From a bacterium (GTDB lineage Bacteria > UBA10199 > JACPAL01 > GCA-016699445): a DNA stretch of 64,000 nucleotides. The first letter of the stretch is position 1; each line of letters starts with the position of its first letter. The stretch covers positions 9,290-73,289 of the forward strand of contig DATIGE010000056.1 of NCBI GenBank assembly GCA_035454885.1, in the 5' to 3' direction. The position numbers and the translations under genes were made by a program. Below, one piece after another: positions 1,118 to 24,268 of this stretch. The notes beneath the pieces are model-generated. The model did not search any database. It was not told the DNA's origin and worked only from the letters and a program-made list of their open reading frames with translations.

Positions 1118-3067
1118 ATGAGCATTAACATCACCGTCAGGCCCAGCGGGGCAACGTCGGGCGGAGACAGCAGAACGATCGAGGGCGAAGGCGCCATCGA
1201 CACCCGGGCCGAGGCTGAAGCGGCATTGACGCTCCTCCCCGAGGGAAGCACGAACGTGGTGGTCGCGGGCGACCGGACCTACACCCGCGAGCAGCTCATC
1301 GAAATCCGTGATCGCGCCCCGGCGGCTGCGGCCCCAGTTGCGGCAGACCGCGGCACGACGGCGGCGGACGGCATGGCCAACGGCGTCGAGCTCCAAGGCT
1401 ATTACGGCGGAGGCGTCGGTTCCAATCCCCACGACGGCGGCGGCGCCCGTCTCTCCTGGGTCCCCAGCTGGCGGGCCGCGGGCGACGAGCACACCTTGCA
1501 TTTTGACCTCCCGGTTGGTCTCGATATCGGCCACTTCAGCATGGGTTACACGCTCCCCGGCGGCGGAGACGCCAATTCGGCGTTCACGCGCTACGGGTTG
1601 CGGGTCGCCCCCACCGCGCGTTGGGTCCCGCCCTGGGCGGACCGGCGGCTTTCGCTCTCTTTGGGCTTAGGGCTGGGCGTCGGAGGTTTCACCACGGCGG
1701 ACAGCACGATGGTTTCCGTTCCGACCACCTGCACGCCGGGCGATTTCGGCCGCGGCGAGTGCGAACCGGACGCGGGTCCGCGCACGGGCAACGGCGGAAC
1801 GACCGGTCTCTTCAATCCCCGCATCGGCAATTCGCGCGGGACGAGCGGCGCTTATTTTGATATCGGCCTTCCCCTCACCTTCGGCGTCAACTTCGCCCGC
1901 GGTGATTGGGGCAACGTCGGCGGCTTCTTGAGCTTCGAACCGGCCTACACGCACATGATGCCCGGCGACGGCGACGGCTTCGGTTTCTGGTCCATGCGCG
2001 GCGGCTTGGGCATCCGCGGCACCTTCGGCGGCAGTTCCGTCGAGCGTCCGCGCCGGCCGGCCGGACCGACCATCGAAGATGCGCGCACCCATTCCACCGA
2101 AATTCCGGGGGGCGCCGCCTTCACCCTCGCGGATGACGCGGCCGTGCGCACCTTGGGCGGCCTGGGCGCGAACGCCCGCATCCTGGGCGTCCAGCTCGAC
2201 GACCATCCGGAAGACACCAGCGCTCCTTATACGTTCGACGCGGCCTGGATGACGCCGGGAGCGCACACGATCAAGATCCGTTATCGGAACCCGGGCGACA
2301 CGGAAGACCGCATCCGCCCGGTGAACATCACGGTCGGAACTCCGGCCCCGGTCAGCGTTCCGGAAGGGGGAACGGGCGAGGCCTTCGGATTGGTCCTCGA
2401 CATGCCCAGCACCGCGACCCGACCGGCGCCAGACGTCGTAGGCGGCGTTTCAACGCCGCGCCCGGTCCGGGTCGGAAGGATCACGACGACCTCGAGCTTC
2501 CCGGAGGGCGCGACCTATCAGATCTACGTGGACAGCAATCCCGTCGGCTCGGCCGCGGACCTTCCGCGCGACCGCGCGACGGAACTGACGGTCCCCGCGA
2601 CCATCGGTGACGGGGATCATCAGATCGAGGTCCGAGTCAGCCGTCCCGGCATGGCGGAGATCCGCTACCCGGCCCGGGCGGTCCGCGTCGGACCCGGTGT
2701 CGCTACGCTGAGCGCCGCGAGCGTTCCTTCGAATCCTCCGAGCGGCGGCCACTACTACAATGACCCGATCCGCGTCACGGTGACGAGCGATGTCGCGACC
2801 CGCGCCCGGATCACGGTCGGATCGCACACGGAAGACGTGAACCTGGTCGTCGGAGTCAACACGATCACGATGACCGGAGCCCCGAGAACCTGGACCACCG
2901 GCGGAGCCGCCGGACGGTCGACCCAGACGGTGCGTATCCAGCCGCTCGACGCGGCGGGCGCCCTGACGGGAACGGCCGTGGAAGCGGGATCGGTTGTCAT
3001 CCGCAGGGCGGGCGGTGGCCACAGACGATCGCCCACCACGACCAGGCCCGCGCGTCCGCTCCCGTAG
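1118..3067 (+). CDS. hypothetical protein X (649 aa): Gly/aromatic-rich central region plus three Ig-like beta-sandwich-looking repeats
   Basis: AGGAGG lies 7 nt upstream of the ATG. No N-terminal signal peptide (MSINITVRPSGATSGG). Residues ~90-330 are Gly/aromatic-rich with alternating hydrophobicity (LSLSLGLGLGVGGF, YFDIGLPLTFGVNF, FLSFEPAY). The C-terminal ~300 aa contain three similar ~90-aa segments (PYTFDAAWMTPGAHTIKIRY; ATYQIYVDSNPVGS..GDGDHQIEVRV; YYNDPIRVTVTS..GVNTITMTG). I recognise no characterised family. Confidence 0.7.
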   Translation: MSINITVRPSGATSGGDSRTIEGEGAIDTRAEAEAALTLLPEGSTNVVVAGDRTYTREQLIEIRDRAPAAAAPVAADRGTTAADGMANGVELQGYYGGGVGSNPHDGGGARLSWVPSWRAAGDEHTLHFDLPVGLDIGHFSMGYTLPGGGDANSAFTRYGLRVAPTARWVPPWADRRLSLSLGLGLGVGGFTTADSTMVSVPTTCTPGDFGRGECEPDAGPRTGNGGTTGLFNPRIGNSRGTSGAYFDIGLPLTFGVNFARGDWGNVGGFLSFEPAYTHMMPGDGDGFGFWSMRGGLGIRGTFGGSSVERPRRPAGPTIEDARTHSTEIPGGAAFTLADDAAVRTLGGLGANARILGVQLDDHPEDTSAPYTFDAAWMTPGAHTIKIRYRNPGDTEDRIRPVNITVGTPAPVSVPEGGTGEAFGLVLDMPSTATRPAPDVVGGVSTPRPVRVGRITTTSSFPEGATYQIYVDSNPVGSAADLPRDRATELTVPATIGDGDHQIEVRVSRPGMAEIRYPARAVRVGPGVATLSAASVPSNPPSGGHYYNDPIRVTVTSDVATRARITVGSHTEDVNLVVGVNTITMTGAPRTWTTGGAAGRSTQTVRIQPLDAAGALTGTAVEAGSVVIRRAGGGHRRSPTTTRPARPLP

Positions 3068-3128
3068 TATTGGACGGTCGACTCCGGGTGACTGATGCAA
3101 GCACGATGGTGAAGAATGGAGAGTATTT

Positions 3129-4811
3129 ATGACCGTATGTCGTGACGTACCTGCCGGGTTGGAACGCAACTGGCAGAACCTCAACGAAATGTATGTGGCC
3201 GTGGGCGTAAGACGCGCCGGCGACGCCGGAACGGCCTTGGCGCCGCCCTCGACCTACGCGGACTCGCAGACCTTGTCCTACATGGTGGGACCATCCGGAG
3301 CGCCGCGGCGATCCATCGATATCTCCATCTTCAACGACGTTGACGCCCGCGCCTGCTTCTTCCGATGGGCCGGGTACGATGAAACGGCGATCAACGCGCG
3401 CGTCACGGCCATCCGGAGCGAACACGCTGATGACCAGGCGGCCGCCGATGCGGCCGTCGCGACCTACCTGGCGACGTTGCCGGCCCTGCAGCAGCAGATC
3501 TACCGCGTTGTCGGTATGATCAGTATCTTCCGTCTGGATTACCGGCGGGAGGGCGGGGCGAACGTCGGCGGCGGCAACCGAGCCAATCCCGATTCCCCCG
3601 AAGCCGCGGACCCCAACATCATCACCGATTACGAGATCCAGCAGTACGCCGCCGAGGCCCTGGAAGGCGGGGATGAAAATCCCGAATACGTGGCGACCGG
3701 CGGACGCATCCTGAGCGGCATCCACGCGATGATCGGTCTCATGCACTATGTCACGACACCGGCACCCGCCGAGGATGGTCCTCGCGTCGTGGCAACCGAA
3801 CCCGTGGACGCCGGACCGGCGGTCGTTCCGACCGTCAATCCGAATCCTGCGTCAAGCAGGTCTTGGGTTTCAGAGCATTTGACAGAACTGATCGTCGGCG
3901 GCCTGACGGCTGTCGGACTGGGCTCCTTGGCAACTTATCTCGTCATGAGAAACCGCGGCGCTTCGACGGCCGAGCCCCGACCGAATACCTCGGTCACTGT
4001 AAATACGTCCGTCGACCGCGCGGGAGAAACCCGGACCGAACGCGCATCCACGCCACCGCCGTCCAGCGGGAACAGCCCGCGGGTCGTCGCCGACACCACC
4101 GGAAAACCTCCTGCTTCGGGCGGAGACACGGGTCCCCGAGTCGTGGCCGACACGACGGGAGCGCCCTCCGGCGGCGGTACTCCCTCGCGAGGAACCCCGA
4201 CGGTCGCCGTGCCCGACGACATCGCAAGCGCCCTGGCCGGTATTGACGGCAACGCATCGCCCGCGGGCGGAGCGCGTCCCAGCGGAACCCCGTCCATTGA
4301 CGGCGTCACGCCCGAGAATGTCATCATCAGCGGAACGACCGCCGAACCCGTCGCGGGCGTCACCCCGGCGGTCGTGCGGGCCCAGATCGTCCTCCATTAC
4401 CGGCACTTCCTCTCCCAGGCGGCCCGCGAGGCCCTGGCGGCGGGACGGCCACTGCCGGCGGACGGCGAGCTGGTGGCCAGCGCCTTCTCACGCGAAGTCA
4501 ATGAGCTGACCGACCGGGTCATCGCCGAGTACCACCGGATGTCGACGGCCGACGCCGATGCCCTGCGCGACATGTGGACCTCGCAGCGCGACGACGGCCG
4601 CCCCATCGTGCGCCGCGGCGTCCCTCAGAGACTGCTCATGAGCGTCGTGGGCGACTACATCACGGCGGAAGCCGCACGCGCCGGCTCGCCCTTCGAGGGC
4701 GGGTTCGGAACGGAGGTCCGCCGCGAGGCCGAGCGCCGATCCGGAGAGACGGACTACTTCGAGAGGGGCATGCGCGAAGTCCTGCGCGACCCCGTCCGCC
4801 TCGGACGCTAA
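3129..4811 (+). CDS. hypothetical single-pass membrane protein Y (560 aa)
   Basis: GGAGAG RBS. It starts 61 nt after gene X with no promoter motif between them, so it is probably co-transcribed. One central hydrophobic helix (LTELIVGGLTAVGLGSLATYLVM). A 19-aa tandem duplicate PRVVADTTG(K/A)P..GG is encoded at 4077-4160. A strong terminator follows. Confidence 0.7.
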   Translation: MTVCRDVPAGLERNWQNLNEMYVAVGVRRAGDAGTALAPPSTYADSQTLSYMVGPSGAPRRSIDISIFNDVDARACFFRWAGYDETAINARVTAIRSEHADDQAAADAAVATYLATLPALQQQIYRVVGMISIFRLDYRREGGANVGGGNRANPDSPEAADPNIITDYEIQQYAAEALEGGDENPEYVATGGRILSGIHAMIGLMHYVTTPAPAEDGPRVVATEPVDAGPAVVPTVNPNPASSRSWVSEHLTELIVGGLTAVGLGSLATYLVMRNRGASTAEPRPNTSVTVNTSVDRAGETRTERASTPPPSSGNSPRVVADTTGKPPASGGDTGPRVVADTTGAPSGGGTPSRGTPTVAVPDDIASALAGIDGNASPAGGARPSGTPSIDGVTPENVIISGTTAEPVAGVTPAVVRAQIVLHYRHFLSQAAREALAAGRPLPADGELVASAFSREVNELTDRVIAEYHRMSTADADALRDMWTSQRDDGRPIVRRGVPQRLLMSVVGDYITAEAARAGSPFEGGFGTEVRREAERRSGETDYFERGMREVLRDPVRLGR

Positions 4812-4838
4812 GACAAAGTCCAAACAAGTCCCCCAAAA

Positions 4839-4873
4839 AGCCGCCCCGGCCCAACGCCGGGGCGGCTTTTTTT
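4839..4873 (+). terminator. rho-independent terminator after gene Y
   Basis: A perfect 12-bp GC-rich stem (AGCCGCCCCGGC at 4839-4850 pairing with GCCGGGGCGGCT at 4856-4867), a 5-nt loop, then a run of T to 4873. Confidence 0.8.
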
Positions 4874-4902
4874 GCCCTATTCCGGATCTCATTCGTTTTA
4901 GA

Positions 4903-4930
4903 ACAACATTTTCAATTTTCCGCCGAAGAG
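4903..4930 (+). promoter_or_regulatory. cluster promoter motif copy 2 (weakest): ACAAC-N15-CCGAAGAG
   Basis: ACAACATTTTC is at 4903-4913 and CCGAAGAG at 4923-4930, 26 nt upstream of ATG 4956. Spacing is the same as in the other copies, but both blocks are degenerate. Confidence 0.35.
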
Positions 4931-4955
4931 GCCGCTGGAGTCGAAATCCGTCTCT

Positions 4956-7900
4956 ATGGTGGGAACCTCGCTCAATTTGATTTCATTGGGTCTGACCTCT
5001 CAAATGGGTCTGGGACTGGGCATCAACCGGCTCGGGGCAAATCTCGGAAATCTCCTGCAATTACAAGGGTCTAACGGAGACGGCTTCAACCTCTCGGAGT
5101 TTGTGGCCGACGCCCTCCCCTGGGCGGCCGGCGCGACCGCCCTGGGGATGGCAGCCGGTGCGGGGATCTATTTCGTCCGCCGCTGGCGGGATCGACAAGC
5201 GGCCCTCCCGCCTCCGGGGATGACGGACGCGCGTCCGGACCAGCTGAAGACCTATTTTCAAACCCCCTCGTCCGACCGCGAAAGGGCCCGGCCCCTCCTC
5301 TTGGGCTACTCGCCTACGGCCTCGGACGAAACCTTGGCCGAGACGGAACGGCGGATCGCCTCGGAGATCGCCGACCTACAGGCCGCTCTCACCGCCCCCC
5401 ACAACGAAAAGAACAAGAAAAGGATCGCCGAGGCCGTCCAGTCCTACGAAGACATTCAGGCCTTCCTTTCCCTGCGGCGGGGCCGGACGGTGCGGGTTCG
5501 CCGGGAATTCCTCGACCATCCGGAAACGGCCCACGCCACCGCCGTTAGACGCCTCTCGGCCCTCGAAGCGCACCGGCTCGTTCTGATCGCCCATTACTTT
5601 CAAAAGGCGCACATTTCACGGAAGAGCGACTTGCCGGACACCGAGCCGGAACCGAAAACGGTGTCCCGATACGCAGGCCTGGACGAGAGACAGAGACGCC
5701 AGCTCCACCTTCTGGCCCTCCGGACCTGGCAGTCGCTCTCTCCCGAGGACAAGGACTTCTTCTGGGAACTCCGACAAAAGGGCGACGACCTGCGCGGGAC
5801 CTCCGTCGCGCCGGATTTTCTGAGACTCTTTGCCCGTCTCGTTCCGAATCCAAAATTCCCCATGAATATGGACGCCTTGGCCGGCGAACTCGCGGGCCAA
5901 GTCACCGCACGCGTGAACGAGCTCAAGAACGGGCCGGAACTACCGCCTCATTTCCGGAACATCCATGGCGGCATCCTCTTGCTCCGGAGCGGCGAGCGCA
6001 TGATGGGTAATATCAAGATCCACCGCCACCTGGGGACCGCCAAGGTCCGCATCACCCGCGAGGTCGGACCGTCGGACAACCGGCAGGTGTCCGTATTGGA
6101 ATACTCTCCGGAACAAGTCCTGACGATCATCGGCGACGAGAAAAAATCCCAAGTACATTGGACGCACCCCGACATCCAGCTGAACGGGGACGACAACAAG
6201 ACCGCCCCCGGCATCGTCGCCGACCTGCGCGAGTACCCCTCCCCCTCCCTGGGCGGCGACCACCGCGTCCTGGTGAACTTTGCGGACGAGCGGCTGACCA
6301 AGAATCTTCAAAGCTTGGAGGTCCTCCGCGAAAAGCTGAAGGGCGGCGAAGTCCCCCCCGCGAGCGCCGTCAGAAGGTTGGCGGGCGCCTTGCTCAAGAA
6401 AAACACGAACCCGGACGCAGAAGCCGTCGCCGCAAAGAGCGGTCCCGGCATTCTGCACGCCCTCATGGACGTCCTGAACGCCGGCGGCCAGGCCGAGCGC
6501 GCCCTCTTGATCCAGATCATCCTGCAATTCCTCGGCATCCCTTCGGCCTTTGAGCGCCGGGACGCTACGGGCGAGGGCGAGACCGCCGCCTTTTGGGTGC
6601 GCGTCGCGGTCCCCGGGGAACCGCAGGTGATCCTTTGCCCGGGGCGGGACGGGGCGGTTCCGGAAGGCGACCCCGACTTTGCCTCCTTTCAAGACCAGAC
6701 GCCGCAGTCGGGATCCCATGGGGCGCCCACAAACGGACTGATCGCCCCCGCTCCCATCGCGCACGCCATCGTTTCGGCTCAGGGCGAAGACAACACGCCC
6801 ATCCCCGCGCCCGCTCCGCCTCCACCCGATGATTTCGACGACCGTCCGACCCAGGTGATCTCCCGGCCAAGACTGTTCGACACCCCCGTTTCGGCGGCAC
6901 CGGACGCCGAGACGGACGAACCGACCGTTCAGGTCCCTTTCGAGACCCTGAAGTCCGAGTCCCTCAGGCACGGCGTGACGGCCGAATTGAAGGAGCGTTA
7001 CGCCCTCTTCGCGACCGACACCGACGCGGCGCGCGAGTTTGCGCGGAGAATCAGCGAAAAGGTGTACGCCGCCTGGGACCAGGCGGGACGGCCGGACCTG
7101 GAAGCGAACGAACAGGGAGAGGCCGTCCTCATTCCGGAAAGATTCATCGAAGCGGTCATGAACGCCTGGAAGGCGAGCCTGCAAAAGAACAAGGGCGCGA
7201 TGGCACGGCGCATCCTGGCTGAGCTGGGCGACCGTGGCGACCGCGCAGCGCGGCGGAAGCCCGCCGCCGCGTCCCTCCCACAGGCGAGCGTTCTTCCCGA
7301 CGACGACGACAACCGGCCGACACTCATCCCGCCTGTCGCGGCTCCCGAACGCGAGAACATCGCCGTCCCCCTCACGCGGCGGTCACGCGCCACCCCTCCG
7401 CCGCTGCCCACGCCCGAGGAATTCGCCCGGCAACAGGAGGAAGCGGCGATTGAGAGAGCCACGGACATTCTCAAGCTCCGGTATCCGGTTTTTCATGAAC
7501 CGCCCTATCAGGGTCTGGCGACGGCCATCGCGCGCAACGCCTACCGGCAGGCGGGAGGCGATCCCGACGCACAACTTGAAGCCATTCTGGGTCTGGTCGC
7601 CCAAACGGCGCCGGCACTGGAGACCAGGGCCTCGCTTCAGCCGGTGCTTGCGGGGATCCGCGCCGCGGACGCGGTCATCTGGGAGCTCACGGACCGTTAC
7701 CCTGCCTTCCGCAATGCAGGCTGGAAAGGCTTTCTTCCCAACGCACTGGCCCACATTTTCCGGGCGTGGCAAATCGCCGGTTCCAAATTCGAAACCGCAC
7801 CGGACGGACGGACCGTCGTCCCGGAGCAGGTTTTTGAAAGCGGGTTCGCCGATTTCACTTCTGGTCTCACGCGGGACTATCCGAACGTGGAGCCCGAAAT

Positions 7901-9026
7901 TTTCGTCGAGGCCTTCATCGAGGGCGATTCGGACATTCGGGAAAAGCGATGGGTCATCGAAGTTGATCCCGAGAAGGACGCGGACATCATCGTCGGCGAC
8001 GGGCCCGACGCAGCCGGGGAACCGGCTCCGGAGGCGCCGGTTACGGCGACGCTGTCGATCCCGACCCCCGCACCGACCTCCGACGCCCCCGTCTCTGGGA
8101 CCGCCTCCGCCGTCTCGAACATTTCAGTCGTTCGCCGGCTGCCCGAAGCTGCGCCCCACGAGGACACCTCCTCCGAGATCCTCCGGCGCTATCCATCGCT
8201 GGAGGCCCATCCGGCCCTCGTCCGGACGCTCGCCGAGCGGTCCGCGCGATTGGCCGCCGAGGACGCCTCGACGCCCGCGGTCGACCGGACGCTCGCCGAA
8301 TTGATCCGCGCCCTTGCGGACACGGCCGTTCCGAAAACGCCCCGCGAGGAGATTCTCCGGTCACTCATCGAAAAGGACGTCGCCGACGAACTGGCCGAGC
8401 GTTACGGCGTCTTTCAGGAGGCGGCCTTCGCCAAGCTCAAGTCCGTCATGGCCCGCCGCATCTACGACGTTTGGGACGGCAACAACCGGACCTTCAACGG
8501 CACCGCAGCCGTTCTGCCGCTCCGCGTGCCGGAAAAATTCGTCGACCAGGGCATGAACGTCCTCTTGACGCCTCTCCGTGCGTCCGACCCCGAAATGGCC
8601 GACCGGATCATGCGCTCGTACCGGGGAACCCGCGCCGAACGAGCCGAACGTCTGGCCCGGCCGGCGTCCGCCCAAGCCGTCCGGCCCGTGCCCATCACAC
8701 AGGACAACGTCCGCATCGAACTGATGCATCGGTTCCCCGCGTTCTTCGGCGCCTACGGGAATCTTGCGACGGCCTTCGCCAAGGACATTTACGAAGCCTG
8801 GCTCCAAGAGGACCCGGAGCGGACGCTCGAGCAGAGCGGCGCCGGCCTCCGCGGGCTGATCCCCGAGTCCGTCCTCGAAAAGCGGATTCCCCTCTTCTAC
8901 GCCCGCGTGGAACAGGCCGGACACGCCGCGCTCGTTCGCGCCATGAAGGAAGACGACAAGGGCCCCCGCTCCAAGCGCGGGACGGCCGTCCTCGAGTTCG
9001 ACGTTCGATTCGCTCGCACCGGCTAG
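4956..9026 (+). CDS. hypothetical large protein Z (1356 aa) with an N-terminal hydrophobic segment and six (E)LxxR(Y/F)PxF repeat modules
   Basis: Long ORF with ordinary amino-acid composition, whereas the antisense ORFs are Arg/Gly/Pro-rich. One hydrophobic segment sits near residue 55-75 (LPWAAGATALGMAAGAGIYFV). Repeats start near nt 6985, 7466, 7682, 8179, 8391 and 8721. No recognisable family. Confidence 0.75.
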   Translation: MVGTSLNLISLGLTSQMGLGLGINRLGANLGNLLQLQGSNGDGFNLSEFVADALPWAAGATALGMAAGAGIYFVRRWRDRQAALPPPGMTDARPDQLKTYFQTPSSDRERARPLLLGYSPTASDETLAETERRIASEIADLQAALTAPHNEKNKKRIAEAVQSYEDIQAFLSLRRGRTVRVRREFLDHPETAHATAVRRLSALEAHRLVLIAHYFQKAHISRKSDLPDTEPEPKTVSRYAGLDERQRRQLHLLALRTWQSLSPEDKDFFWELRQKGDDLRGTSVAPDFLRLFARLVPNPKFPMNMDALAGELAGQVTARVNELKNGPELPPHFRNIHGGILLLRSGERMMGNIKIHRHLGTAKVRITREVGPSDNRQVSVLEYSPEQVLTIIGDEKKSQVHWTHPDIQLNGDDNKTAPGIVADLREYPSPSLGGDHRVLVNFADERLTKNLQSLEVLREKLKGGEVPPASAVRRLAGALLKKNTNPDAEAVAAKSGPGILHALMDVLNAGGQAERALLIQIILQFLGIPSAFERRDATGEGETAAFWVRVAVPGEPQVILCPGRDGAVPEGDPDFASFQDQTPQSGSHGAPTNGLIAPAPIAHAIVSAQGEDNTPIPAPAPPPPDDFDDRPTQVISRPRLFDTPVSAAPDAETDEPTVQVPFETLKSESLRHGVTAELKERYALFATDTDAAREFARRISEKVYAAWDQAGRPDLEANEQGEAVLIPERFIEAVMNAWKASLQKNKGAMARRILAELGDRGDRAARRKPAAASLPQASVLPDDDDNRPTLIPPVAAPERENIAVPLTRRSRATPPPLPTPEEFARQQEEAAIERATDILKLRYPVFHEPPYQGLATAIARNAYRQAGGDPDAQLEAILGLVAQTAPALETRASLQPVLAGIRAADAVIWELTDRYPAFRNAGWKGFLPNALAHIFRAWQIAGSKFETAPDGRTVVPEQVFESGFADFTSGLTRDYPNVEPEIFVEAFIEGDSDIREKRWVIEVDPEKDADIIVGDGPDAAGEPAPEAPVTATLSIPTPAPTSDAPVSGTASAVSNISVVRRLPEAAPHEDTSSEILRRYPSLEAHPALVRTLAERSARLAAEDASTPAVDRTLAELIRALADTAVPKTPREEILRSLIEKDVADELAERYGVFQEAAFAKLKSVMARRIYDVWDGNNRTFNGTAAVLPLRVPEKFVDQGMNVLLTPLRASDPEMADRIMRSYRGTRAERAERLARPASAQAVRPVPITQDNVRIELMHRFPAFFGAYGNLATAFAKDIYEAWLQEDPERTLEQSGAGLRGLIPESVLEKRIPLFYARVEQAGHAALVRAMKEDDKGPRSKRGTAVLEFDVRFARTG

Positions 9027-9099: not shown

Positions 9100-9127
9100 G
9101 CAACGTTCGCGCCTTACGGCCGAAAAC
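9100..9127 (+). promoter_or_regulatory. cluster promoter motif copy 3: GCAAC-N15-CCGAAAAC
   Basis: GCAAC is at 9100-9104 and (G)CCGAAAAC at 9120-9127, 47 nt upstream of ATG 9174. The downstream CCAAAGC resembles the CCAAAAC found in copies 4 and 7. Confidence 0.5.
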
Positions 9128-9173: not shown

Positions 9174-10151
9174 ATGTCGGGGACACAATGCGCGGATTTC
9201 GGGGGAACGGAACTGGGGGAAACCCTGTGCGTCATGCCGGAGGGTCACGTCTATCCGGGACTCATCACGTACCGCGACGGGCGCGTGGCGGACATCACCT
9301 CGGAGAGCGGGGGAACCGTCGTCATCGCGGGGCCCAACGGCACGGGGACGGTCACGATGGAGGGCGTCGGCGCCGAATCACTGGCGATCACACGCGGCAT
9401 GGCGGACACGGAAATCGGCGATTGTTCCGCGCGCGGGATGGGCGGGGTCTCCTTCTCCCCCATGATGTCACGCTACGAGGGCGAGGAGATCACCTGGTCC
9501 GCGGCCGAGGCCCGCGAGCTTTCGCGAATCCTCGGCGTGTCGGGGACGCGTTCCGGATCGGCGTTTTTCTGCTCGAATCGCGAAAACGCGGGCGCCCTAG
9601 TCGTGGCAAGCGACGCGTTCCACCGTCCGGACCTGATCGCCGGCATCGAAACCCTCGACTCTTCTTGCGGCGATCTCGATGACACGCACTGCGCGGCCAT
9701 GCTCGCCTCCTTGAGAACGGCCGCCGGAATGCCGGCCCCCGAATCGTGGTGGAACCAGATCCGGGGCATCGCGGGATACTTGATCGGCGGCGTGGTCGTC
9801 TTCGTCGTGGGCGGTTTGGGTTCGCACGTCGCGGCTCGGTGGTGGGACGGACGCGGTGGCGACGGCAACCCTCCGGCCGGCGGGGCCGGCACGGGATCGG
9901 GCACCGGCGTGAGCGCGCCTTCATCGAACCCTGTGAGTGAGACGACGAGCGCCTTCACCGAGGAACAAGGACTTTGGACGGGACTCGCTGTCACCTGCGG
10001 TGTCGCCGCCGCGATCCTTTGGGCTGACGACGCGACCGTCATCGGCGTCGTGGACGACCCCGTCGCCGCCGTCGCAACGGTCGCCGCCGTCGCATTCCTG
10101 GGGCTCGCCGTCTTCTCGGGCGAAGACACGTCCGGCGTGCCGGAGGCGTAA
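9174..10151 (+). CDS. family A paralogue 1 (325 aa): Cys-containing N-domain, one TM helix, Gly/Pro-rich tail
   Basis: GGGAGGA RBS. The first ~215 aa align clearly with the products of 10318..11403 and 17027..18193 (MSGxxCxD(F/Y), GRVA(D/S)I, AGP(N/T)G, GDC(S/A)A(R/Q)G, ITW, AF(F/L)CS). TM helix IAGYLIGGVVVFVVGGLGSHV, followed by WWDGRGG. Confidence 0.8.
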   Translation: MSGTQCADFGGTELGETLCVMPEGHVYPGLITYRDGRVADITSESGGTVVIAGPNGTGTVTMEGVGAESLAITRGMADTEIGDCSARGMGGVSFSPMMSRYEGEEITWSAAEARELSRILGVSGTRSGSAFFCSNRENAGALVVASDAFHRPDLIAGIETLDSSCGDLDDTHCAAMLASLRTAAGMPAPESWWNQIRGIAGYLIGGVVVFVVGGLGSHVAARWWDGRGGDGNPPAGGAGTGSGTGVSAPSSNPVSETTSAFTEEQGLWTGLAVTCGVAAAILWADDATVIGVVDDPVAAVATVAAVAFLGLAVFSGEDTSGVPEA

Positions 10152-10258: not shown

Positions 10259-10286
10259 GCAACATTTCCAACGCGGAGCCGATAAC
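10259..10286 (+). promoter_or_regulatory. cluster promoter motif copy 4: GCAACATTTC..-N15-..(G)CCGATAAC
   Basis: GCAAC is at 10259-10263 and the exact octamer GCCGATAA at 10278-10285, 32 nt upstream of ATG 10318. Confidence 0.6.
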
Positions 10287-10317: not shown

Positions 10318-11403
10318 ATGTCGGGTAATCAGTGCAGTGACTTCGGGGGGACGAATCTGGGGGCGAGTTTGTGTTCGATGCCGGCCGGGCACGCCTACGA
10401 AGGGCTGATCACCTATCGGGACGGCCGCGTGGCGTCGATCCGAAGGACCGACGGGGCCAACACCATTTTCGCAGGACCTAACGGAACGGGCGACATCACC
10501 CTCGCCGACTTGGGAACGGCCGCCATCGCCCTCACGCGCACCCTGGCGGGAGGCGAGGTCGGCGACTGCGCCGCGCGCGGCGCCGGCGGCGTTTCGTTCT
10601 CAGCCCTCCAGACCACCTACAACGGCTCCGCGATCACCTGGGAAGCCCCCCACTTGGCAGCGCTCTACCGCGCCCTGGGATCTTCGGGAGGTCAATCCGG
10701 AAACGCCTTCTTCTGCTCGAACCGCGAAAACGCACGGGCCTTGGTCGTCAACAACGACACTTTTCACCGCCCCGCCCTCTTGGCGGGGATCAGCGCGCTG
10801 ACCTCCAACCGGAGCAATTTCTCGGAATTGGATGACGCCCACTACAACGCGATGCTCCAGTCGCTCCGCGCCGCCGCCGGCGTGCCGGAGCCCCAGTCCA
10901 CGTGGGACCAGGTCAAGGGCATGGGGGGGTACCTCGTGGGCGGTATTCTCGTCTTCATCCTCGGCGGCGTCGGCGCACACTTGGTTTCGAAATGGTTCGA
11001 CAACCGCGGCGGGCCCAAGGGTCCCGGCAGCGGAAGCGGCGGAGGAGGCGATCAAGACGCCTTCGTCCGCGGACTGATCGAAGGACTCCGCGCCGCGGGC
11101 GCGACGATCCCGGAACCGGTCGCCAACCCTACGCCCGTAGCGAACCCGACGCCGACCGGAAATCCCGTCACCAATCCGGGAAATGCCCGGGTCGCGAGCG
11201 CCCTCGACATGGCCCGGGCCATCCGGGGCTTCAACGGCGGCACGTCCGTGGTCCCGGGCGCACCCGGAGCGGTTCCCAACGTCGCCGGTCCCGGCGTCAA
11301 CCCGGCGCTCATTCCGGTGCCGGTCCCGCCTCCGGTGGTCGTCCCGCCGGTCGTGGTCCCGGCCCCCGCACTGGTTCCCCGGCTCGTGCCGGTCGTTCCG
11401 TAA
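10318..11403 (+). CDS. family A paralogue 2 (361 aa)
   Basis: The start is set at ATG 10318 (GGAGG at 10309-10313). From there the N-terminus MSGNQCSDFGG aligns residue-for-residue with MSGTQCADFGG of paralogue 1, and the promoter motif lies inside the longer TTG-10252 ORF of the track. TM helix MGGYLVGGILVFILGGVGAHL. The tail has a VANPTPVANPTPTGNPVTNP repeat and a terminal Pro/Val run. Confidence 0.8.
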   Translation: MSGNQCSDFGGTNLGASLCSMPAGHAYEGLITYRDGRVASIRRTDGANTIFAGPNGTGDITLADLGTAAIALTRTLAGGEVGDCAARGAGGVSFSALQTTYNGSAITWEAPHLAALYRALGSSGGQSGNAFFCSNRENARALVVNNDTFHRPALLAGISALTSNRSNFSELDDAHYNAMLQSLRAAAGVPEPQSTWDQVKGMGGYLVGGILVFILGGVGAHLVSKWFDNRGGPKGPGSGSGGGGDQDAFVRGLIEGLRAAGATIPEPVANPTPVANPTPTGNPVTNPGNARVASALDMARAIRGFNGGTSVVPGAPGAVPNVAGPGVNPALIPVPVPPPVVVPPVVVPAPALVPRLVPVVP

Positions 11404-11459: not shown

Positions 11460-13193
11460 ATGTCTCCGCCAACTTTTCCCCAACTCCTGGCACCCACGGG
11501 ATTTTGCGGTCCCTCGGAGATCGGCCCCGTGTGCTACGCCGATCCCCTGGTGGTGAATAGTCCTTCGTCGATCTATTCCGGGGACTCGGTCACGATCCCG
11601 TGGAGCGATTTTTCCACGCGGGGGCTCCTGCCCTACTTTCGCGAAGGCCGGATGGACTCGGCCCCTCCGACGCCCCCGCCTCTCGACCAAAATCTTCCGC
11701 TCTCGGAGTACCGTGATCGTCTGCCGGCGGAGTTACAGCCTTACCTCGCCCCGCTCGTCCAGATCGAGGCCGAGTTCGGCGTGCCGGTCTCCTTCCGCGT
11801 CGTGAACCTCCGCCTCTCGACGGGCGAGGAGGTCCCTCAGATCTATTTCTTCCGGACCGGCGAAGAGGGTGAAACGCCCTGGATGCGGTCGCCCCGCGGA
11901 GGAGGAGGCGCCGGACCGGCGCCCGAACCGACCACGTTCGGTCTCACCGTGAATCTTTTCGGCGGTGCCGCGGCCGTCGTCGCCTACGACCACCTGCTCA
12001 TCCGGCCGCTCATCGACAATGGCCTCGTACCGCCGGAGATGCACAGCCCCCTGCTCTTCACCTCCCTCATGACGGGCCACCTGGCCCTCCATCGTGCGGG
12101 CCTCGTCAAGGCCGCGCCAGGGCAGGCTGTGCGCGGGATGCCGACGTTCATGGGATTTCAGATGCTCGCGGGGCTCCTGATGGAAGGTCTGGGTGTCGAG
12201 CCGGGTCCGGCCCGCGATCTGGGCACCCTCACCCTCTCCATGATGCCCCTCCTCTTGGCGCGCCAATCGCCGGTCCTGGCGGAGGCCCTGGAGGCCGCCG
12301 CGGCGGGACGGGGCTTTCAACTCGCGGGGCTCTCGGGGGAGGCGGCCACGCTCCGCGTGGGGGCCGCGTTCGCGCGGATCTTGGGGTGGATCGGCCTCAT
12401 CGACCTGGGCGCCCGCCTCGGGACCTGGGGCATCGGCAACATCGTCTCCGCCGTCTCCTCCGGCGACACCCGGCACAACATGAGGATCTGGAACCTCATC
12501 CGCATGAGCCAGGACATCATCAACCAGGAGGACTGCGGTTCCTTCGCCGCGTCGGTCTTCGGCTCCTTCCTCACCTTCGGCGACACCGTCCATTCATGGA
12601 TCGACGACGACTACGACGCCTATTATCAGGACCGGGTCCGGCGCACCTACCTCGGACTCGCGGAAGGATCCGACGAATTCGGCGAATCGCTCCACTCGAG
12701 CCTCGCCGCCATCATCGGGCGGCATATCTCCGTGACGCCGGGCGGGACGGACGGAACCTACGCCGTGGATTCCGTGAATTGGGACGGCATCGCGGCCGAC
12801 GTGGCGGCCTTTTACCAGGAGGAAGACAACGCGGACAATATCCGGGCCGGATACGGCCTCGTGGACGATGCAACCGCCCCGATGACCGCCAGCGGGATCT
12901 CCGAGTTGATCGACATCGTCTCCGTGAACGGGGAGATCCCGGACAGAGACCAGTTCCGCGTCCATTTCCGGAACTACGCGGGCCTTCAGCTCTTCCGTAA
13001 GCTGCAAACCTTGGAGTCGCGCGCCTTGGAGCTGGGACTCGCCGAGGACGTGGACGGCGTCCGCGTCTTCCGGATGCCCTCCGACCCTTCAAGGCTCACC
13101 GCCGCCCAAAACGAGTTCCTGACGGGCGAAGGACTCCGGCTCAGCACGGAGATCGCGTACCTCACCCTCTTGGAGGAGGCCATGGAACGCTGA
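11460..13193 (+). CDS. family B paralogue 1 (577 aa): polytopic hydrophobic core protein
   Basis: AAGGAG RBS. It starts 56 nt after the family A gene with no promoter motif, so it is probably co-transcribed. It aligns along its full length with 13278..15053 and more distantly with 15214..16827. Confidence 0.8.
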   Translation: MSPPTFPQLLAPTGFCGPSEIGPVCYADPLVVNSPSSIYSGDSVTIPWSDFSTRGLLPYFREGRMDSAPPTPPPLDQNLPLSEYRDRLPAELQPYLAPLVQIEAEFGVPVSFRVVNLRLSTGEEVPQIYFFRTGEEGETPWMRSPRGGGGAGPAPEPTTFGLTVNLFGGAAAVVAYDHLLIRPLIDNGLVPPEMHSPLLFTSLMTGHLALHRAGLVKAAPGQAVRGMPTFMGFQMLAGLLMEGLGVEPGPARDLGTLTLSMMPLLLARQSPVLAEALEAAAAGRGFQLAGLSGEAATLRVGAAFARILGWIGLIDLGARLGTWGIGNIVSAVSSGDTRHNMRIWNLIRMSQDIINQEDCGSFAASVFGSFLTFGDTVHSWIDDDYDAYYQDRVRRTYLGLAEGSDEFGESLHSSLAAIIGRHISVTPGGTDGTYAVDSVNWDGIAADVAAFYQEEDNADNIRAGYGLVDDATAPMTASGISELIDIVSVNGEIPDRDQFRVHFRNYAGLQLFRKLQTLESRALELGLAEDVDGVRVFRMPSDPSRLTAAQNEFLTGEGLRLSTEIAYLTLLEEAMER

Positions 13194-13226: not shown

Positions 13227-13254
13227 GCAACATTTCCGCATTCCAGCCGATAAC
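13227..13254 (+). promoter_or_regulatory. cluster promoter motif copy 5: GCAACATTTC..-N15-..(G)CCGATAAC
   Basis: GCAAC is at 13227-13231 and the exact GCCGATAA at 13246-13253, 24 nt upstream of ATG 13278. Confidence 0.6.
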
Positions 13255-13277: not shown

Positions 13278-15053
13278 ATGACGTGTAATCCGGCCATTGC
13301 GACTTGCCTGCCTCCGATCGCCTCGGCGTCGACCGGCTTTTTCGGCCCCAATGACCTCGGGCCTGTCTGCAACGCCGCCACCCCGGCCGACTCCTTTGGG
13401 ATGTGCGAGGCCCCCCTGGCAAGCGCCGGGGACGCCCCGGGGATGGCCTCACTGTTCGCGCCCGCACCCCTCGAATGCTCAGCGGACAGGGGACTCCCAC
13501 CGTCCAATGTGGACCTCCGATTGGCCGATTACCGGACGAGCTTGCCCGGGGAACTGACCCCGTACATCGAGCCGATGCTCCGCCTGGAGACCGAGTTCAA
13601 CGTCTCCGTCTCCTTCCGAATCGTGCAGGCCCGTCTCTCGAACGGCGAGACCGTCCCGCAGATCGTCTTCTTTCGCACGGGCGACACGCCGTCGATCGCG
13701 GCGACCGGAACCGGAGGGAGCGGTCCGGGCGGTCCCGGAGCCGCAACCGCGCGGACGCCGACATCCACCGGAATGTTCGTGTCCCTCACGGGGGCCGGGG
13801 CCGCCATCGTCGCCTACGACCGGTTCCTGCTGCAGGCCCTCGTCGACCGCCACATCCTGCCCGAAGAGGCCCGCATCCCTGTCCTCTTCACGAGCGTGAT
13901 GGCCTCGCATCTCGCCCTCTACCGGGCGGGTCTGGTCAGCGTCGGTCCGGTCGAAGGCTTAAGGGGTCTGCCCACGTTCCTCGGCTACCAGATCCTCGCC
14001 CGGCTCCTCTTGGAGCGGATCGGTGCGCCCACGAACTCGTTCAGCACCGATCTCGCGGGCGTCACGCTGGCGACCATGCCGTTCATCCTCCAAAGGCTCT
14101 GCGCGGAATCCGCCACGCAACTCTCGACCGCCGCCGGAAGGGCCCTGGCGGAAGGCGCGGTCCTTCGTGCCGCTGCGCTCGGCACCGGCGCGGAGCTGAT
14201 GGTGGGAGGGGCGTCAGTCCTGCGCGTCAGCGCGGTCTTCGCGCGTATGTTGGGCTGGATCGGCATCATCGATATCGGCGCGCGCGCCGGGGTCTGGGGA
14301 ATCGGGCGGATCTACTCCGCCGCCTCCAGCGGCGATTACCGCACCAACGTCCGTCTCTGGAACCTCATCCGCCTGAGCCAGGATATCTACAATCAGGAAC
14401 GGTTCGGATCGGTGCTTTCCGGTGCCTTCGGGATGATCTGGACCTTTTTCGACTCCGTCGACTCGATGGTGAGCAGCGAATCCGACGCCTTCCACACGCG
14501 CAATGTCGAAAGGATTCGGGACACTCTGGTCAGCGGCTCCGACGCGTTCGGTGATTCCCTCCACCAGAGCCTGATCGCCATCCTCGCGCAAAATACGCGC
14601 TTCTCCCCCGACGGGGCGGCGACGACGGACTGGGACGCGGTCGAACGGGACGTACGCGCCTTCTACCGGGACGAACGAAACGCCGAAAACATTCGGAACG
14701 GCTACAACATCGTGGACGACGCCACGGCGCCGATGACCTCCAGCGGCATCGAGAGCCTGATCGGCATCGTCAGCGACCGGGGAGAGATCCGGAACCGGAC
14801 GGAGTTCCGGGAACACATGGCCCGCCACGTCCGGATCCGCCGGATCGACGTCGCCCGGCGCCTCAACGAACGCTCCTTGGAACTGGGCCTGTCGGAGGTC
14901 GTCAACGGCGTTGCCGTCTCCATGATCCCGACCGATCCCGCACAATTGGAGGCCTTCCGGACCCATCTGACGCCCGCCCAGCGTGAGTTCCTGGACGGAG
15001 AAGGCCTCCGCCTCTCCATGGAACTGATGACCCTTTCCACCCTCCCGCATTAG
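13278..15053 (+). CDS. family B paralogue 2 (591 aa)
   Basis: Shares YR(D/T)xLPxELxPY..E(A/T)EFxVxVSFR(V/I)V, VPQI(Y/V)FFRTG, SSGDxRxNxRxWNLIRxSQDI and C-terminal FLxGEGLRLSxE with 11460..13193. Confidence 0.8.
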   Translation: MTCNPAIATCLPPIASASTGFFGPNDLGPVCNAATPADSFGMCEAPLASAGDAPGMASLFAPAPLECSADRGLPPSNVDLRLADYRTSLPGELTPYIEPMLRLETEFNVSVSFRIVQARLSNGETVPQIVFFRTGDTPSIAATGTGGSGPGGPGAATARTPTSTGMFVSLTGAGAAIVAYDRFLLQALVDRHILPEEARIPVLFTSVMASHLALYRAGLVSVGPVEGLRGLPTFLGYQILARLLLERIGAPTNSFSTDLAGVTLATMPFILQRLCAESATQLSTAAGRALAEGAVLRAAALGTGAELMVGGASVLRVSAVFARMLGWIGIIDIGARAGVWGIGRIYSAASSGDYRTNVRLWNLIRLSQDIYNQERFGSVLSGAFGMIWTFFDSVDSMVSSESDAFHTRNVERIRDTLVSGSDAFGDSLHQSLIAILAQNTRFSPDGAATTDWDAVERDVRAFYRDERNAENIRNGYNIVDDATAPMTSSGIESLIGIVSDRGEIRNRTEFREHMARHVRIRRIDVARRLNERSLELGLSEVVNGVAVSMIPTDPAQLEAFRTHLTPAQREFLDGEGLRLSMELMTLSTLPH

Positions 15054-15143: not shown

Positions 15144-15171
15144 GCAACATTTCTTACCCACGGCCGATAAC
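15144..15171 (+). promoter_or_regulatory. cluster promoter motif copy 6: GCAACATTTC..-N15-..(G)CCGATAAC
   Basis: GCAAC is at 15144-15148 and the exact GCCGATAA at 15163-15170, 43 nt upstream of GTG 15214. AT-rich DNA lies immediately upstream. Confidence 0.6.
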
Positions 15172-15213: not shown

Positions 15214-16827
15214 GTGACCTCTCCCATCGTCTACAATCCCATGGCGACCGCGACCCTGAACGCCGGTTCCGTCATCCAAACCCAGCAGCTGGAGATCCTG
15301 AGCCGGCCCTTGGACGGTTTTGTCGAGGGAAGAAATTACCGCCTGAACGACGTGATGTCCTCCCTGCCCGTGGGGCCGCTCCGCAACACCGCCTCCCTGC
15401 TCGCGGGCTCGCCCGACACGATGATCACCATGCGCCTCGCGATGGCGGCCGACGGGTCGGTGACGCCGCAATACCTCTTCCGCCAGGCGGGCGACATCCC
15501 CTTCGAGGGTCCATTCGTGCGCGTGGGCAACGGCGGAGGCCCTCCGGCAGAACCGATCCCCGGAGGCTCTCTTGCGGTCACGCTCGGAGGCTCCGCCATC
15601 CTGATCGGCACCAACGTCTTTCTCGCCCAGAACGATGTCCCGGCCCCCGTGATCGGACCCTTCGTGGGCGGCACCTACGCCCTGGCCGACGTGGGCGGCC
15701 GCTTTTTCACCGCCCCCTCGGCGCGGGTCCCGGCCGCTCCTTTGAATCAGTTCTTGAACCAGGGTCTCACCTCGATGGGCGTCGGAACGACCGTTCAGTA
15801 CGGCTGGTCCTACGCCTTCGACGCCTTGGGCACGCCGATGGGCTCGGACGCGAACACCTACGGGAGCATCGGGGGCACGCTCCTCACCTTCGCGCCGGCC
15901 ATCAACTCGCCCTTGAATCCCGTTTACTCGCCGACCTTCGCCAACGCCTTTCGGTCCGCGATCGGCGTGGGCCTGACCGGGGCCGGCGAAGGCTCCTACG
16001 TCTTTCTGGCCAAGGGAGGGTGGGCGGGGGGCGCGGGCTGGTCCGGAGGCGCCATGCAGGGTCTGGGCGCGGCCGGGGCCGTCATCATGGGCAGCCAGCT
16101 CGGGGGCTGGATCACCGAGGCCGCCACCGGGATGAACGATACGAGCGATCCTTACGGACAACTCGCGCGGATGGCCCGTGACCGGATGTACTCGGAGGCC
16201 TGGGGCTGGTTGGGCCGGAGTCCCGTCGGCCATCTCATGGCGGGGTTGACCGTCCTGTGCGGCTACGGAGACGAATTCGCCGAAGGTCTGGGCTATGCCG
16301 AACAAGCGATCGTCCGCGACACGCGCAGCTTCACGGACAACATGGATTCGAACCTCGTCGCCTTCCTCATGAGGAGCGCCTCGGACCGCGAACAGGAACC
16401 GATGGCGATGCAGGACCTGGAAGCGGGCATTCGCACCTTTTACAGCGACAACAGCACGGCGATGGCCAGTTCCTACCGGGTCATCGACATCCTCCGCCGC
16501 ACCTTCAAGCTCGACCGGGACGAAGGCGGGATGACCCGTTTCGTGGACGCGAACGGCCACATCACCGACCGTGCGGCCTTCAACACCTTCGCGGCGGGCG
16601 TGGCCGAGCGGGAGCTGAACATCCGGTCGAGGCGGCTCACGGCCTTGTGGGAAAGATACGGCATCACCTTGTCGGCGACCGGCCAGGTGACGCCAGTACG
16701 GGGTTCAAGTTTCACGCAGGAACAGGTCGACTTCCTGGAGGGAGACGGCGCGCGCTTGGGTTCGGAGATCATGCGCCTCACCAACGCCCTGGCGACGCTC
16801 CGTCCGTCGCCGGTCATGACGAATTAA
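15214..16827 (+). CDS. family B paralogue 3 (537 aa, divergent)
   Basis: GTG start with AAGGAG 5 nt upstream. It keeps the family layout: TPQYLFRQAGD corresponds to VPQIYFFRTGE, there is a Gly-rich hydrophobic core, and C-terminal FLEGDGARLGSEI corresponds to FLTGEGLRLSTEI. The antisense ORF 15184..16560 is Arg/Gly/His-rich and was rejected. Confidence 0.75.
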   Translation: MTSPIVYNPMATATLNAGSVIQTQQLEILSRPLDGFVEGRNYRLNDVMSSLPVGPLRNTASLLAGSPDTMITMRLAMAADGSVTPQYLFRQAGDIPFEGPFVRVGNGGGPPAEPIPGGSLAVTLGGSAILIGTNVFLAQNDVPAPVIGPFVGGTYALADVGGRFFTAPSARVPAAPLNQFLNQGLTSMGVGTTVQYGWSYAFDALGTPMGSDANTYGSIGGTLLTFAPAINSPLNPVYSPTFANAFRSAIGVGLTGAGEGSYVFLAKGGWAGGAGWSGGAMQGLGAAGAVIMGSQLGGWITEAATGMNDTSDPYGQLARMARDRMYSEAWGWLGRSPVGHLMAGLTVLCGYGDEFAEGLGYAEQAIVRDTRSFTDNMDSNLVAFLMRSASDREQEPMAMQDLEAGIRTFYSDNSTAMASSYRVIDILRRTFKLDRDEGGMTRFVDANGHITDRAAFNTFAAGVAERELNIRSRRLTALWERYGITLSATGQVTPVRGSSFTQEQVDFLEGDGARLGSEIMRLTNALATLRPSPVMTN

Positions 16828-16856
16828 ATCAGTAGAAAGTCCGCTTTGATTTCAAA

Positions 16857-16890
16857 GGGCCGGGGGAACCCCCCGGCCCTTTTTGTTTTT
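16857..16890 (+). terminator. rho-independent terminator after family B paralogue 3
   Basis: A 10-bp GC stem (GGGCCGGGGG at 16857-16866 pairing with CCCCCGGCCC at 16870-16879), a 3-nt loop, then TTTTTGTTTTT. Confidence 0.75.
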
Positions 16891-16956: not shown

Positions 16957-16984
16957 GCAACATTTCTTCGTCCCCGCCGAAAAC
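16957..16984 (+). promoter_or_regulatory. cluster promoter motif copy 7: GCAACATTTC..-N15-..(G)CCGAAAAC
   Basis: GCAAC is at 16957-16961 and CCGAAAAC at 16977-16984, followed by CAAAACGGAGCC as in copy 4. It lies 43 nt upstream of ATG 17027, with an AT-rich tract upstream. Confidence 0.55.

Positions 16985-24268: not shown

Follow-up and report, generated by a model that had tools for sequence, protein, structure and literature searches.

A conserved cluster of undescribed, partly lysine-free proteins under sigma-28-type promoters in an uncultured bacterium

Related systems

In Bdellovibrio bacteriovorus, a FliA-type promoter stands at 92 of 140 attack-phase promoters, including those of many uncharacterized non-flagellar proteins, and a higher G+C content is mentioned for the attack-phase genes (Karunker et al. 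2013, PMC3627812). We describe here a cluster of eleven genes (X, Y, Z, A1, A2, B1, B2, B3, A3, C1 and C2) on contig DATIGE010000056.1 of an uncultured bacterium, lying in a stretch of 64 kb whose entire length is referred to below as the window. Its likeness to Bdellovibrio consists in a sigma-28-type promoter (TTAAG-N16-CCGATA there, GCAAC-N15-CCGATAA here) before mostly uncharacterized non-flagellar genes, with a separate promoter copy for each gene or small operon. The two differ in phylum and in the −35 element, no homologous proteins were detected between them, and the present genes, paralogue families among them, lie together in a single cluster. So far as this analogy reaches, the attack-phase regulon of Bdellovibrio is the nearest functional precedent.

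The sigma-28 late genes and type III-secreted membrane proteins (Inc) of Chlamydiae likewise represent a non-flagellar developmental set served by a sigma-28-family promoter, and their products share with ours the lack of a Sec signal and the presence of internal hydrophobic segments. However, A-type proteins carry one transmembrane helix instead of the bilobed two-helix Inc domain and B-type proteins none above threshold; moreover, no type III secretion system (T3SS) genes were seen, the gene content nearby is of a free-living type, and there is no sequence similarity. Depletion of lysine, the second distinctive trait of the cluster, has been described for the A chains of AB toxins, possibly as a defence against ubiquitination, as well as for proteomes and phages exposed to pupylation, and bacteria that possess a Pup-proteasome system often show lysine deserts (PMC10665810). 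The cluster proteins resemble these in a strong, selective loss of lysine with arginine kept, but they have neither A-B architecture nor a catalytic domain, whole proteins of 325–650 aa are affected, and lysine-free and lysine-normal paralogues adjoin. The families themselves are new by every sequence and structure test applied, and their regulatory logic is of a known kind.

The gene cluster

Eleven open reading frames (ORFs), all on the plus strand, fill positions 1118–24268 (23 kb) of the window as one co-directional block:

1118..3067, plus strand: X, 649 aa, 1 Lys
3129..4811, plus strand: Y, 560 aa, 1 Lys; starts 61 nt after X
4956..9026, plus strand: Z, 1356 aa, 3.2% Lys
9174..10151, plus strand: A1, 325 aa, 0 Lys
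10318..11403, plus strand: A2, 361 aa, 3 Lys (positions 200, 225 and 234)
11460..13193, plus strand: B1, 577 aa, 2 Lys; 56 nt after A2, without a promoter of its own
13278..15053, plus strand: B2, 591 aa, 0 Lys; N-terminal MTCNPAIATC (C-x6-C)
15214..16827, plus strand: B3, 537 aa, 2 Lys, GTG start; divergent B paralogue
17027..18193, plus strand: A3, 388 aa, 19 Lys (4.9%); lysine-containing A paralogue
18288..21338, plus strand: C1, 1016 aa, 3.3% Lys; hydrophobic Pro-rich C-terminus
21338..24268, plus strand: C2, 976 aa, 3.4% Lys; Pro/Val-rich C-terminus

A preliminary description of this DNA had listed these eleven genes, and all are present, with a coding-type G+C content at third codon positions (GC3) of 0.75–0.86 that equals that of the window's housekeeping genes. 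The three paralogue families proposed there were confirmed by BLASTP (identities of 57% for A1/A2, 39% for A1/A3, 46% for B1/B2 and 39% for C1/C2), with B3 as a distant member at ~22% identity (1e-7). The view that the proteins belong to no described family also stands, as Pfam, NCBIfam, PADLOC and PHROGs yielded zero families for any of the eleven (E ≤ 0.1–1) and PDB sequence and profile searches with the cluster proteins gave zero matches. N-terminal Sec signals had been reported absent, and a Kyte-Doolittle scan found no hydrophobic segment in the first 60 residues of any of the eleven proteins. Some statements had to be revised: the G+C content, given as equal to the core genome, is ~0.646 in the cluster against ~0.615 in the remaining window, the excess sitting in codon position 2, and Z lacks a well-spaced Shine-Dalgarno site, which had been assigned to all genes.

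Outside the cluster, the window is core chromosome, encoding sulfite reductase, ThiF-rhodanese, peroxiredoxin, a Ser/Thr-kinase/sigma-54-activator fusion, DnaB, S6, L25, Prs, IspE, ClpB, DegP and BamD. As first described, no tRNA, integrase or repeat flanks the block: the tRNAs of the window lie only at 42 kb and 51 kb, and no flanking integrase or repeat was found. Compared with mobile elements, phages and defence islands, the block showed no integrase, transposase, phage genes or PADLOC/PHROGs families, its flanks being core genes, and no relative of B1 was found in phage, plasmid and IMG/VR collections. The earlier suggestion that the cluster is lineage-specific and chromosomal, without recent acquisition, is supported, with the same position beside sulfite reductase and ThiF/rhodanese in a related contig of 535 kb.

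Conservation in related genomes

Related clusters occur in at least six other assemblies (loci are designated below by L and a number), and the orthologues in independent assemblies share 50–89% identity and keep their gene order. Apart from the genome of the window, the cluster is carried by CBDCFN01, JAJFLM01 (OFTM19), DASUFF01 (SMAG_U1372), CAZXZM01 and JGI Ga0172278_1366, among others. Since the contigs of B relatives carry the neighbours too, it is the cluster that is conserved, beyond any single gene. On L001 (the 535-kb JGI contig), the order is a Y-like gene, X, Y, a Fic gene at the slot of Z, two A-type genes, a B1/2-like, a B3-like and a short B gene, an A-type gene and one for a 752-aa B-type protein, after which come, as in the window, sulfite reductase and ThiF. 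Z, A1, B, A2, B1 (83%) and B3 (85%) are present in L142, and in L171, from the soil metagenome-assembled genome (MAG) SMAG_U1372, Z-, A1-, A2- and C-like genes are consecutive. More distant clusters lie on the 2.4-Mb contig CBDCFN010000016.1 (GC 0.58; L144/L146/L151) and in MAG OFTM19 (GC 0.49; L150), the former with no fewer than 15 Pfam-less genes that all point the same way, among them as many as eight paralogues of type B and four of type A. The Fic gene of L001 (5670–7208) encodes a 512-aa Fic/DOC-domain protein with 5.3% Lys and has no promoter motif, and on both counts it was rejected as a member of the system.

The idea that the ORFs are spurious, or that the block is a decayed mobile element, draws its sole support from the absence of database matches. 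It is refuted by the GC3 values, by the orthologues and their conserved order, by a confident AlphaFold model of B1 and by conserved promoters (both presented below), by the lack of phage, plasmid or IMG/VR relatives and by flanks that consist of core genes.

The ClpB protein of the window is closest to that of MAG HK-STAS-UBA10199-1 (72%), and the promoter motif also matches nXX_bin1, placed in the phylum UBA10199 by Lin et al. The host is probably an uncultured 'Deltaproteobacteria'-type organism of the candidate phylum UBA10199, which is without a cultured member. A magnetosome cluster, raised by the magnetotactic UBA10199 MAG as nearest ClpB match, was considered and rejected, as Pfam revealed no mamA/B/E/K/M/O/P/Q-type domains (CDF transporter, trypsin-PDZ, actin-like, TPR, LemA) in the eleven proteins.

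A shared sigma-28-type promoter

The intergenic regions, when read, revealed a shared element whose best form is (C)GCAAC-WTTY-N10-GCCGATAAC. A relaxed pattern of this motif has nine matches in the window against 2.0 expected, a number reached in 0 of 100 shuffles, and seven of the nine precede X, Z, A1, A2, B2, B3 and A3. The sites of X and Z are weaker variants, and an eighth cluster site, before C1, was found separately. These sites, the terminator-like hairpins and one motif copy outside the cluster are located as follows:

1034..1059, plus strand: promoter-like site before X, CAAC-N15-GCGATAA, weaker variant with one mismatch
4840..4873, plus strand: intrinsic-terminator-like G+C hairpin and T7 run after Y, from reading the sequence
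4904..4929, plus strand: promoter-like site before Z, weaker variant CAACATTT-N-GCCGAAGA with one mismatch
9101..9126, plus strand: promoter-like site before A1, motif pattern
10260..10285, plus strand: promoter-like site before A2, consensus form
13228..13253, plus strand: promoter-like site before B2, motif pattern
15145..15170, plus strand: promoter-like site before B3, motif pattern
16854..16882, plus strand: intrinsic-terminator-like hairpin of 13 pairs and T run after B3
16958..16983, plus strand: promoter-like site before A3, motif pattern
18239..18265, plus strand: promoter-like site before C1, spacer one base longer
54575-54550, minus strand: motif copy outside the cluster, directly downstream of clpB, motif pattern
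53223-54542, minus strand: Pfam-less ORF behind that motif, at most 439 aa, 3.4% Lys, from the ORF list

Across eight cluster loci with GC contents of 49–65%, 36 copies of the motif lie on the coding strand against a single one on the opposite strand, and 33 of the 56 genes have it within 160 nt upstream. The −10 positions are nearly invariant among 29 aligned sites (G24, C29, C29, G29, A29, T25, A29, A29). The −10 consensus of sigma-28 is GCCGATAA (PMC12784957), and the −10 half of the shared motif is identical to it, including the extended GC. The −35 half, GCAAC-WTTY, differs from the TAAA(GTTT) of sigma-28, with the AA and TTT parts common to both, and the spacing CAAC-N15-CCGA matches the sigma-28 layout (about 15–16 nt). 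Variants of the −35 element are known by lineage, with TTAAG in Bdellovibrio (PMC3627812) and CTCA for WhiG1 (PMC12871210). An alternative-sigma promoter with a sigma-28-type −10 element, which the preliminary description had postulated, is common to the cluster units and is conserved, being retained in genomes of 49–65% GC. It offers a handle for defining the whole regulon in MAGs without cultivation.

Y, B1 and C2 have no motif site of their own and each abuts the preceding gene, from which the units X-Y, Z, A1, A2-B1, B2, B3, A3 and C1-C2 follow; the hairpins stand after Y and B3. X-Y is probably an operon because Y, 61 nt from X, is without its own promoter, and C1-C2 is indicated as one by the overlap of the C2 start with the C1 stop. 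The ORF downstream of clpB is a putative member of the same regulon outside the cluster. The GTG listed as its start is too near the −10 element, and translation probably begins farther inside the ORF.

The motif was also followed into other genomes, where ~110 motif-downstream ORFs were extracted from genome contigs among the matches listed. In other 'Deltaproteobacteria'/Myxococcales MAGs, it precedes signal-less eCIS-core/DUF4157, trypsin-like, FGE-sulfatase and acyltransferase proteins; the first three are of a sort typical for delivered effectors, and signal-less enzymes in this position would fit an effector-type regulon, and some of the matches may be due to chance. Both motif matches in the Myxococcales MAG RYN_368 (L154 and L217) precede large signal-less HExxH proteins, that of L154 having an eCIS-core/DUF4157 domain (Pfam 9e-30) and that of L217 being similar by eye.

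Depletion of lysine

An ordinary amino-acid composition had been ascribed to all eleven proteins, yet seven of them (X, Y, A1, A2, B1, B2 and B3; counts listed above) are nearly lysine-free. The other four (Z, A3, C1 and C2) contain 3.2–4.9% Lys, eleven housekeeping proteins 4.3–10.3%, and the organism's Sec-exported DegP, BamD, OmpA, M23 and DUF4382 proteins 2.9–5.7%. Arginine is retained at 4–9% in the lysine-poor proteins. By our own arithmetic, the probability of finding no lysine in 591 residues at 5.8% Lys is ~5e-16. The depletion is not an effect of G+C content, since B-type proteins of 596, 634 and 526 aa in a 49%-GC relative also have 0 Lys. Selective relative to the proteome and with arginine kept, it has the character of a lysine desert, and the seven proteins, to judge from their composition, have been under strong selection against lysine.

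Among close paralogues the depletion is bimodal, and the split recurs in three lineages, one of them a 49%-GC genome: each of three A-type families that are not homologous to one another has both lysine-free and lysine-normal members. Within the cluster of the window, the distal end is formed by A3, C1 and C2, which have normal lysine. This split provides a sharp sequence signature by which similar systems may be searched for in other genomes, and it yields a testable prediction of each protein's destination. In CP064976.1 and a relative (GC 0.43; L122 from ~7140 onward and L133 from ~4300 onward), the motif is followed by a gene whose 267-aa product has no lysine at all and apparently carries a lipoprotein signal (…ASAMSGC), indicating that lysine-free proteins under the motif are present also in low-G+C relatives and can be Sec/Lol substrates.

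Lysine-free subunits of an extracellular fibre, sheath, coat or matrix, resistant to lysine-specific proteases or amine-reactive chemistry, would be another explanation, though an unlikely one. Such a structure would account for the abundance of paralogues in tandem that are each served by a strong promoter of their own, as flagellins or pilins are (L144/L146 have as many as eight of type B and four of type A). The Pro/Val-rich tails, the Ala/Gly/Pro/Ser/Thr-rich composition, the repeat motifs of X and the EF-hand-like loops of family C would suit a structural role. However, arginine kept at 4–9% means that trypsin-like proteases would still cut, lysine-normal paralogues lie within the same cluster and an export route is absent. 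Nor do the proteins resemble flagellin, pilin, curli or S-layer families, with neither Flagellin_N nor Flagellin_C in the eleven cluster proteins (Pfam, E ≤ 0.1) or in 42 family B members (E ≤ 0.001).

Family B

Family B is sparsely represented in sequence databases: a word-indexed database of 5.8 billion entries returned eight proteins, a broad profile included, and an exhaustive profile search of 1.84 billion proteins 58 representatives (E ≤ 1e-3). No Pfam domain was found in 42 members (E ≤ 0.001). Orthologues of the divergent B3 are present in L001, L002 and L142 at 59–85% identity. By hydropathy, the B proteins consist of amphipathic, weakly hydrophobic Ala/Gly-rich helices, none above the transmembrane threshold; the internal hydrophobic helices that the preliminary description had attributed to family B are corrected in this sense. 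Many B and A proteins begin with an N-terminal Cys pair, which in 16 of 64 B representatives takes the form M-x-C-[DN]-P-x-I-x-x-C (C-x6-C), and the two N-terminal Cys columns of family B co-occur (phi 0.77).

The structure check that had been proposed was carried out on B1, whose AlphaFold model, built from a 53-sequence alignment, is confident (pLDDT 82.5, pTM 0.61). Residues 1–57 are disordered in the model (pLDDT below 50) and residues 78–132 make up a small alpha/beta domain, while the remainder is predicted as all-alpha domains of long helices, up to ~45 residues, with two small hairpins. Foldseek found no neighbour of the model in the PDB (best E 2.3, TM < 0.15) or in BFVD, and the PDB profile search was likewise without a match. 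Having a confident model without structural neighbours, B1 may represent a new fold.

Export by way of the flagellum is known for the Mak proteins. A multi-component alpha-helical pore-forming toxin leaving through the flagellar channel, like Vibrio MakA/B/E or the ClyA-family tripartite toxins, was considered for the B paralogues, which form sets of at least three divergent all-alpha proteins in tandem, with amphipathic hydrophobic helices and sigma-28-type promoters, and a first, low-quality model of B1 had given a chance-level match to MakB (E = 6.3, probability 0.03). The likeness to tripartite alpha-pore-forming toxins (ClyA family: MakABE, AhlABC, Nhe, Hbl) lies in this tandem of divergent all-alpha paralogues and in the amphipathic or hydrophobic helices; fold and profile similarity are lacking, and B proteins are larger (525–890 aa), with up to eight paralogues per cluster. 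The confident B1 model brought up no ClyA, Mak, Nhe or Hbl among its Foldseek matches, PDB sequences gave no profile match and flagellar genes were not seen, which makes a pore-former of this kind highly improbable.

Families A and C

A-type proteins have a common layout of a Cys-containing N-domain, one Gly-rich transmembrane helix, poly-Gly, a variable region and a Pro/Val-rich tail. In A1, the N-domain contains C6, C19, C84, C132 and the pair C164/C172, and after it come a transmembrane helix of Gly-zipper-like character (~aa 194–222), a Gly-rich linker and further hydrophobic stretches (aa 266–318). Conserved cysteines, reported earlier for this family, are seen in the alignment, in which A2 has lost C164 and C172 together. 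Two of the three lysines of A2 directly flank its transmembrane helix, and its C-terminal tail is Pro/Val-rich (...VPRLVPVVP). Hydropathy shows a clear single transmembrane helix in Y, A2 and A3.

Homology was not detectable among the N-domains of the window family A, A' of L001 and A'' of L144/L150; homology of the window family to A' was proposed and rejected, as hhalign matches only the low-complexity linker. In L118 (MAG SRP273308_co1_414, CAZWYB010000087.1), of a 56%-GC lineage, a 515-aa protein combines two A-type N-domains, a transmembrane helix and a C-terminal module of ~130 aa (…FLSEIGIDKEEW…EKKGI) that is present also in two neighbouring proteins and is another shuffled module of the same system.

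The EF-hand-like loops noted earlier in family C were found, by pattern only, as DGSPDGFVTR(S/T)E at aa 110 of C1 and aa 100 of C2.

Proteins X, Y and Z

X has a Gly/aromatic-rich N-terminal half, the C-terminus ...RPARPLP and no Sec signal, and its orthologue in L001 is 52% identical. The pattern G-x-H/N-x-I/V-x-I/V-R occurs in three copies in its C-terminal half, and the putative label of 'Ig-like repeats' given to X rests on this motif only. Y has a single transmembrane helix at aa 254–273 by hydropathy, and its N-terminal 229 aa are 69% identical to Y of L001.

Z contains four to five copies of a ~100-aa helical module (EL..RYP.F ... W ... VPERF ... RG.RAER), located by a local HMM search at aa 668–767, 905–995, 1135–1239 and 1246–1356. 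No copies were detected in Y, C1 and C2 at E ≤ 1, and a word-indexed protein search with the module returned two fragments. In L150, three proteins that are unrelated in their other parts end in this module, and one of them has an AAA ATPase domain. This last protein (L150 2741–6109; 1122 aa) joins an AAA-type ATPase region (GPSGSGKG, Pfam AAA 6e-5) to the C-terminal Z module and counts just 9 Lys; its genome has a GC content of 49%.

Such mix-and-match is reminiscent of polymorphic effector and toxin loci, with the same helix, poly-Gly and Pro/Val tail joined to three non-homologous N-domains (A, A' and A'') and the Z module attached to N-terminal parts of unrelated kinds, an AAA ATPase among them. 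Unlike those loci, the cluster has no known toxin, immunity, Rhs, LXG, MIX or PAAR module, and no associated secretion system was found.

Export or retention of the proteins

We tentatively favour, as a possibility at less than even odds, that the lysine-free proteins are exported or delivered by a non-Sec route, under sigma-28-type control, and work where lysine is a liability. A FliA/WhiG-type sigma factor would turn the units on jointly, at a particular stage or under particular conditions. The lysine-free proteins X, Y, A1, A2 and B1–B3 would then leave the producer cytoplasm and act on or in another compartment or cell, be it a prey bacterium, a eukaryotic host or a cell surface, where tagging, cross-linking or cleavage would threaten proteins that contain lysine. 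Z, A3, C1 and C2, which do contain it, would remain with the producer as membrane-anchored or scaffolding partners, and interaction with membranes would fall to the single-pass A proteins with their Pro/Val tails and to the amphipathic all-alpha B proteins. Export is hinted at indirectly by the lack of Sec signals, by cysteines that are gained and lost in pairs, by the disordered N-terminus of the B1 model and by an avoidance of lysine that the organism's own Sec-exported proteins do not show.

Several observations weigh against export. The absence of Sec signals is equally typical of cytoplasmic proteins, and lysine may be avoided for several other reasons. Neither the window nor the related cluster loci yielded a secretion-system, flagellar or chaperone gene, and no T3SS apparatus or chaperone genes were found in the window, L001, L002, L140, L142, L144/L146, L147, L149 and L150; within these loci, the flagellar/T3SS link drawn in the preliminary description was not supported. 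No sigma factor or flagellar gene appeared among the Pfam-scanned ORFs of the window, a subset of its ORFs. Of the ~110 motif-downstream proteins, eight were scanned with Pfam and yielded no flagellar domain, and in ~45 N-termini read by eye no flagellar protein was evident. No toxin, enzyme or eukaryote-like domain was detected in the eleven proteins, and the Fic protein of L001, with normal Lys and no motif, is probably an unrelated insertion.

The proteins may instead stay in the producer, as parts of an intracellular or inner-membrane, stage-specific structure (a polar organelle, cytoskeletal scaffold or membrane-remodelling complex) under a sigma-28-family factor, with the avoidance of lysine protecting a long-lived structure against tagging, acylation or cross-linking that the cell itself directs at lysine. 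We regard this as rather doubtful, though it is consistent with the lack of Sec signals, with no export machinery being encoded nearby and with B proteins that are long-helix and all-alpha rather than integral membrane proteins, next to A proteins resembling single-pass anchors. Lysine deserts are common in bacteria with Pup-proteasome systems (PMC10665810), and sigma-28-family factors run non-flagellar development in other phyla (PMC12871210), with WhiG in Streptomyces and sigma-28 for chlamydial late genes as parallels. On the other hand, the dispersed cysteines, gained and lost in pairs, look more disulfide-like than metal-site-like, the greater number of Lys/Arg on the C-terminal side of the A-type transmembrane helix, judged by eye, suggests an N-out topology, and the composition of X is beta-rich, with Gly and aromatic residues.

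A more specific form of export, which we consider speculative and improbable in its full extent, would be a new delivery or cell-targeting system with lysine-free cargo suited to a cell that tags lysine (by the ubiquitin of a protist or the Pup of a prey bacterium), N-terminal Cys pairs as export or recognition signal, Z, A3, C1 and C2 as producer-side apparatus and B as a new membrane-active architecture. If the proteins are exported, they would represent a non-Sec set unlike known effector, toxin, pilus and flagellar families, and an unrecognized mode of cell interaction.

Neighbouring genes

The gene upstream of X (1–~870, minus strand), cut by the window edge, encodes a protein with a classical signal peptide (MKFPKQFGVRKAIFAAVFLVAASG...), indicating that the organism employs ordinary Sec signals; it has, by eye, Asp-rich thrombospondin-type-3-like repeats, and its Lys content is normal. 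Next to C2, the 720-aa sulfite/nitrite reductase (24269–26431, minus strand) has a weak HEPN match (E = 0.023) at residues 594–657, and HEPN genes also adjoin B-type genes in L147 and L148. A 158-aa protein with genuine EF-hand domains (Pfam 2e-13) is encoded 7 kb downstream of the cluster (31683–32159, minus strand). The kinase fusion (33016–36525, minus strand; 1169 aa) joins a Ser/Thr protein kinase to TPR repeats, GAF, a sigma-54 activator AAA+ domain and a Fis-type HTH, and a second kinase and sigma-54 activator adjoin a B-type gene in L147. At the window end (60001–64000), with genes for a fatty-acid hydroxylase and a GNAT acetyltransferase among others and with small Pfam-less ORFs, the G+C content falls from ~0.61 to 0.47–0.53, and this segment may be foreign.

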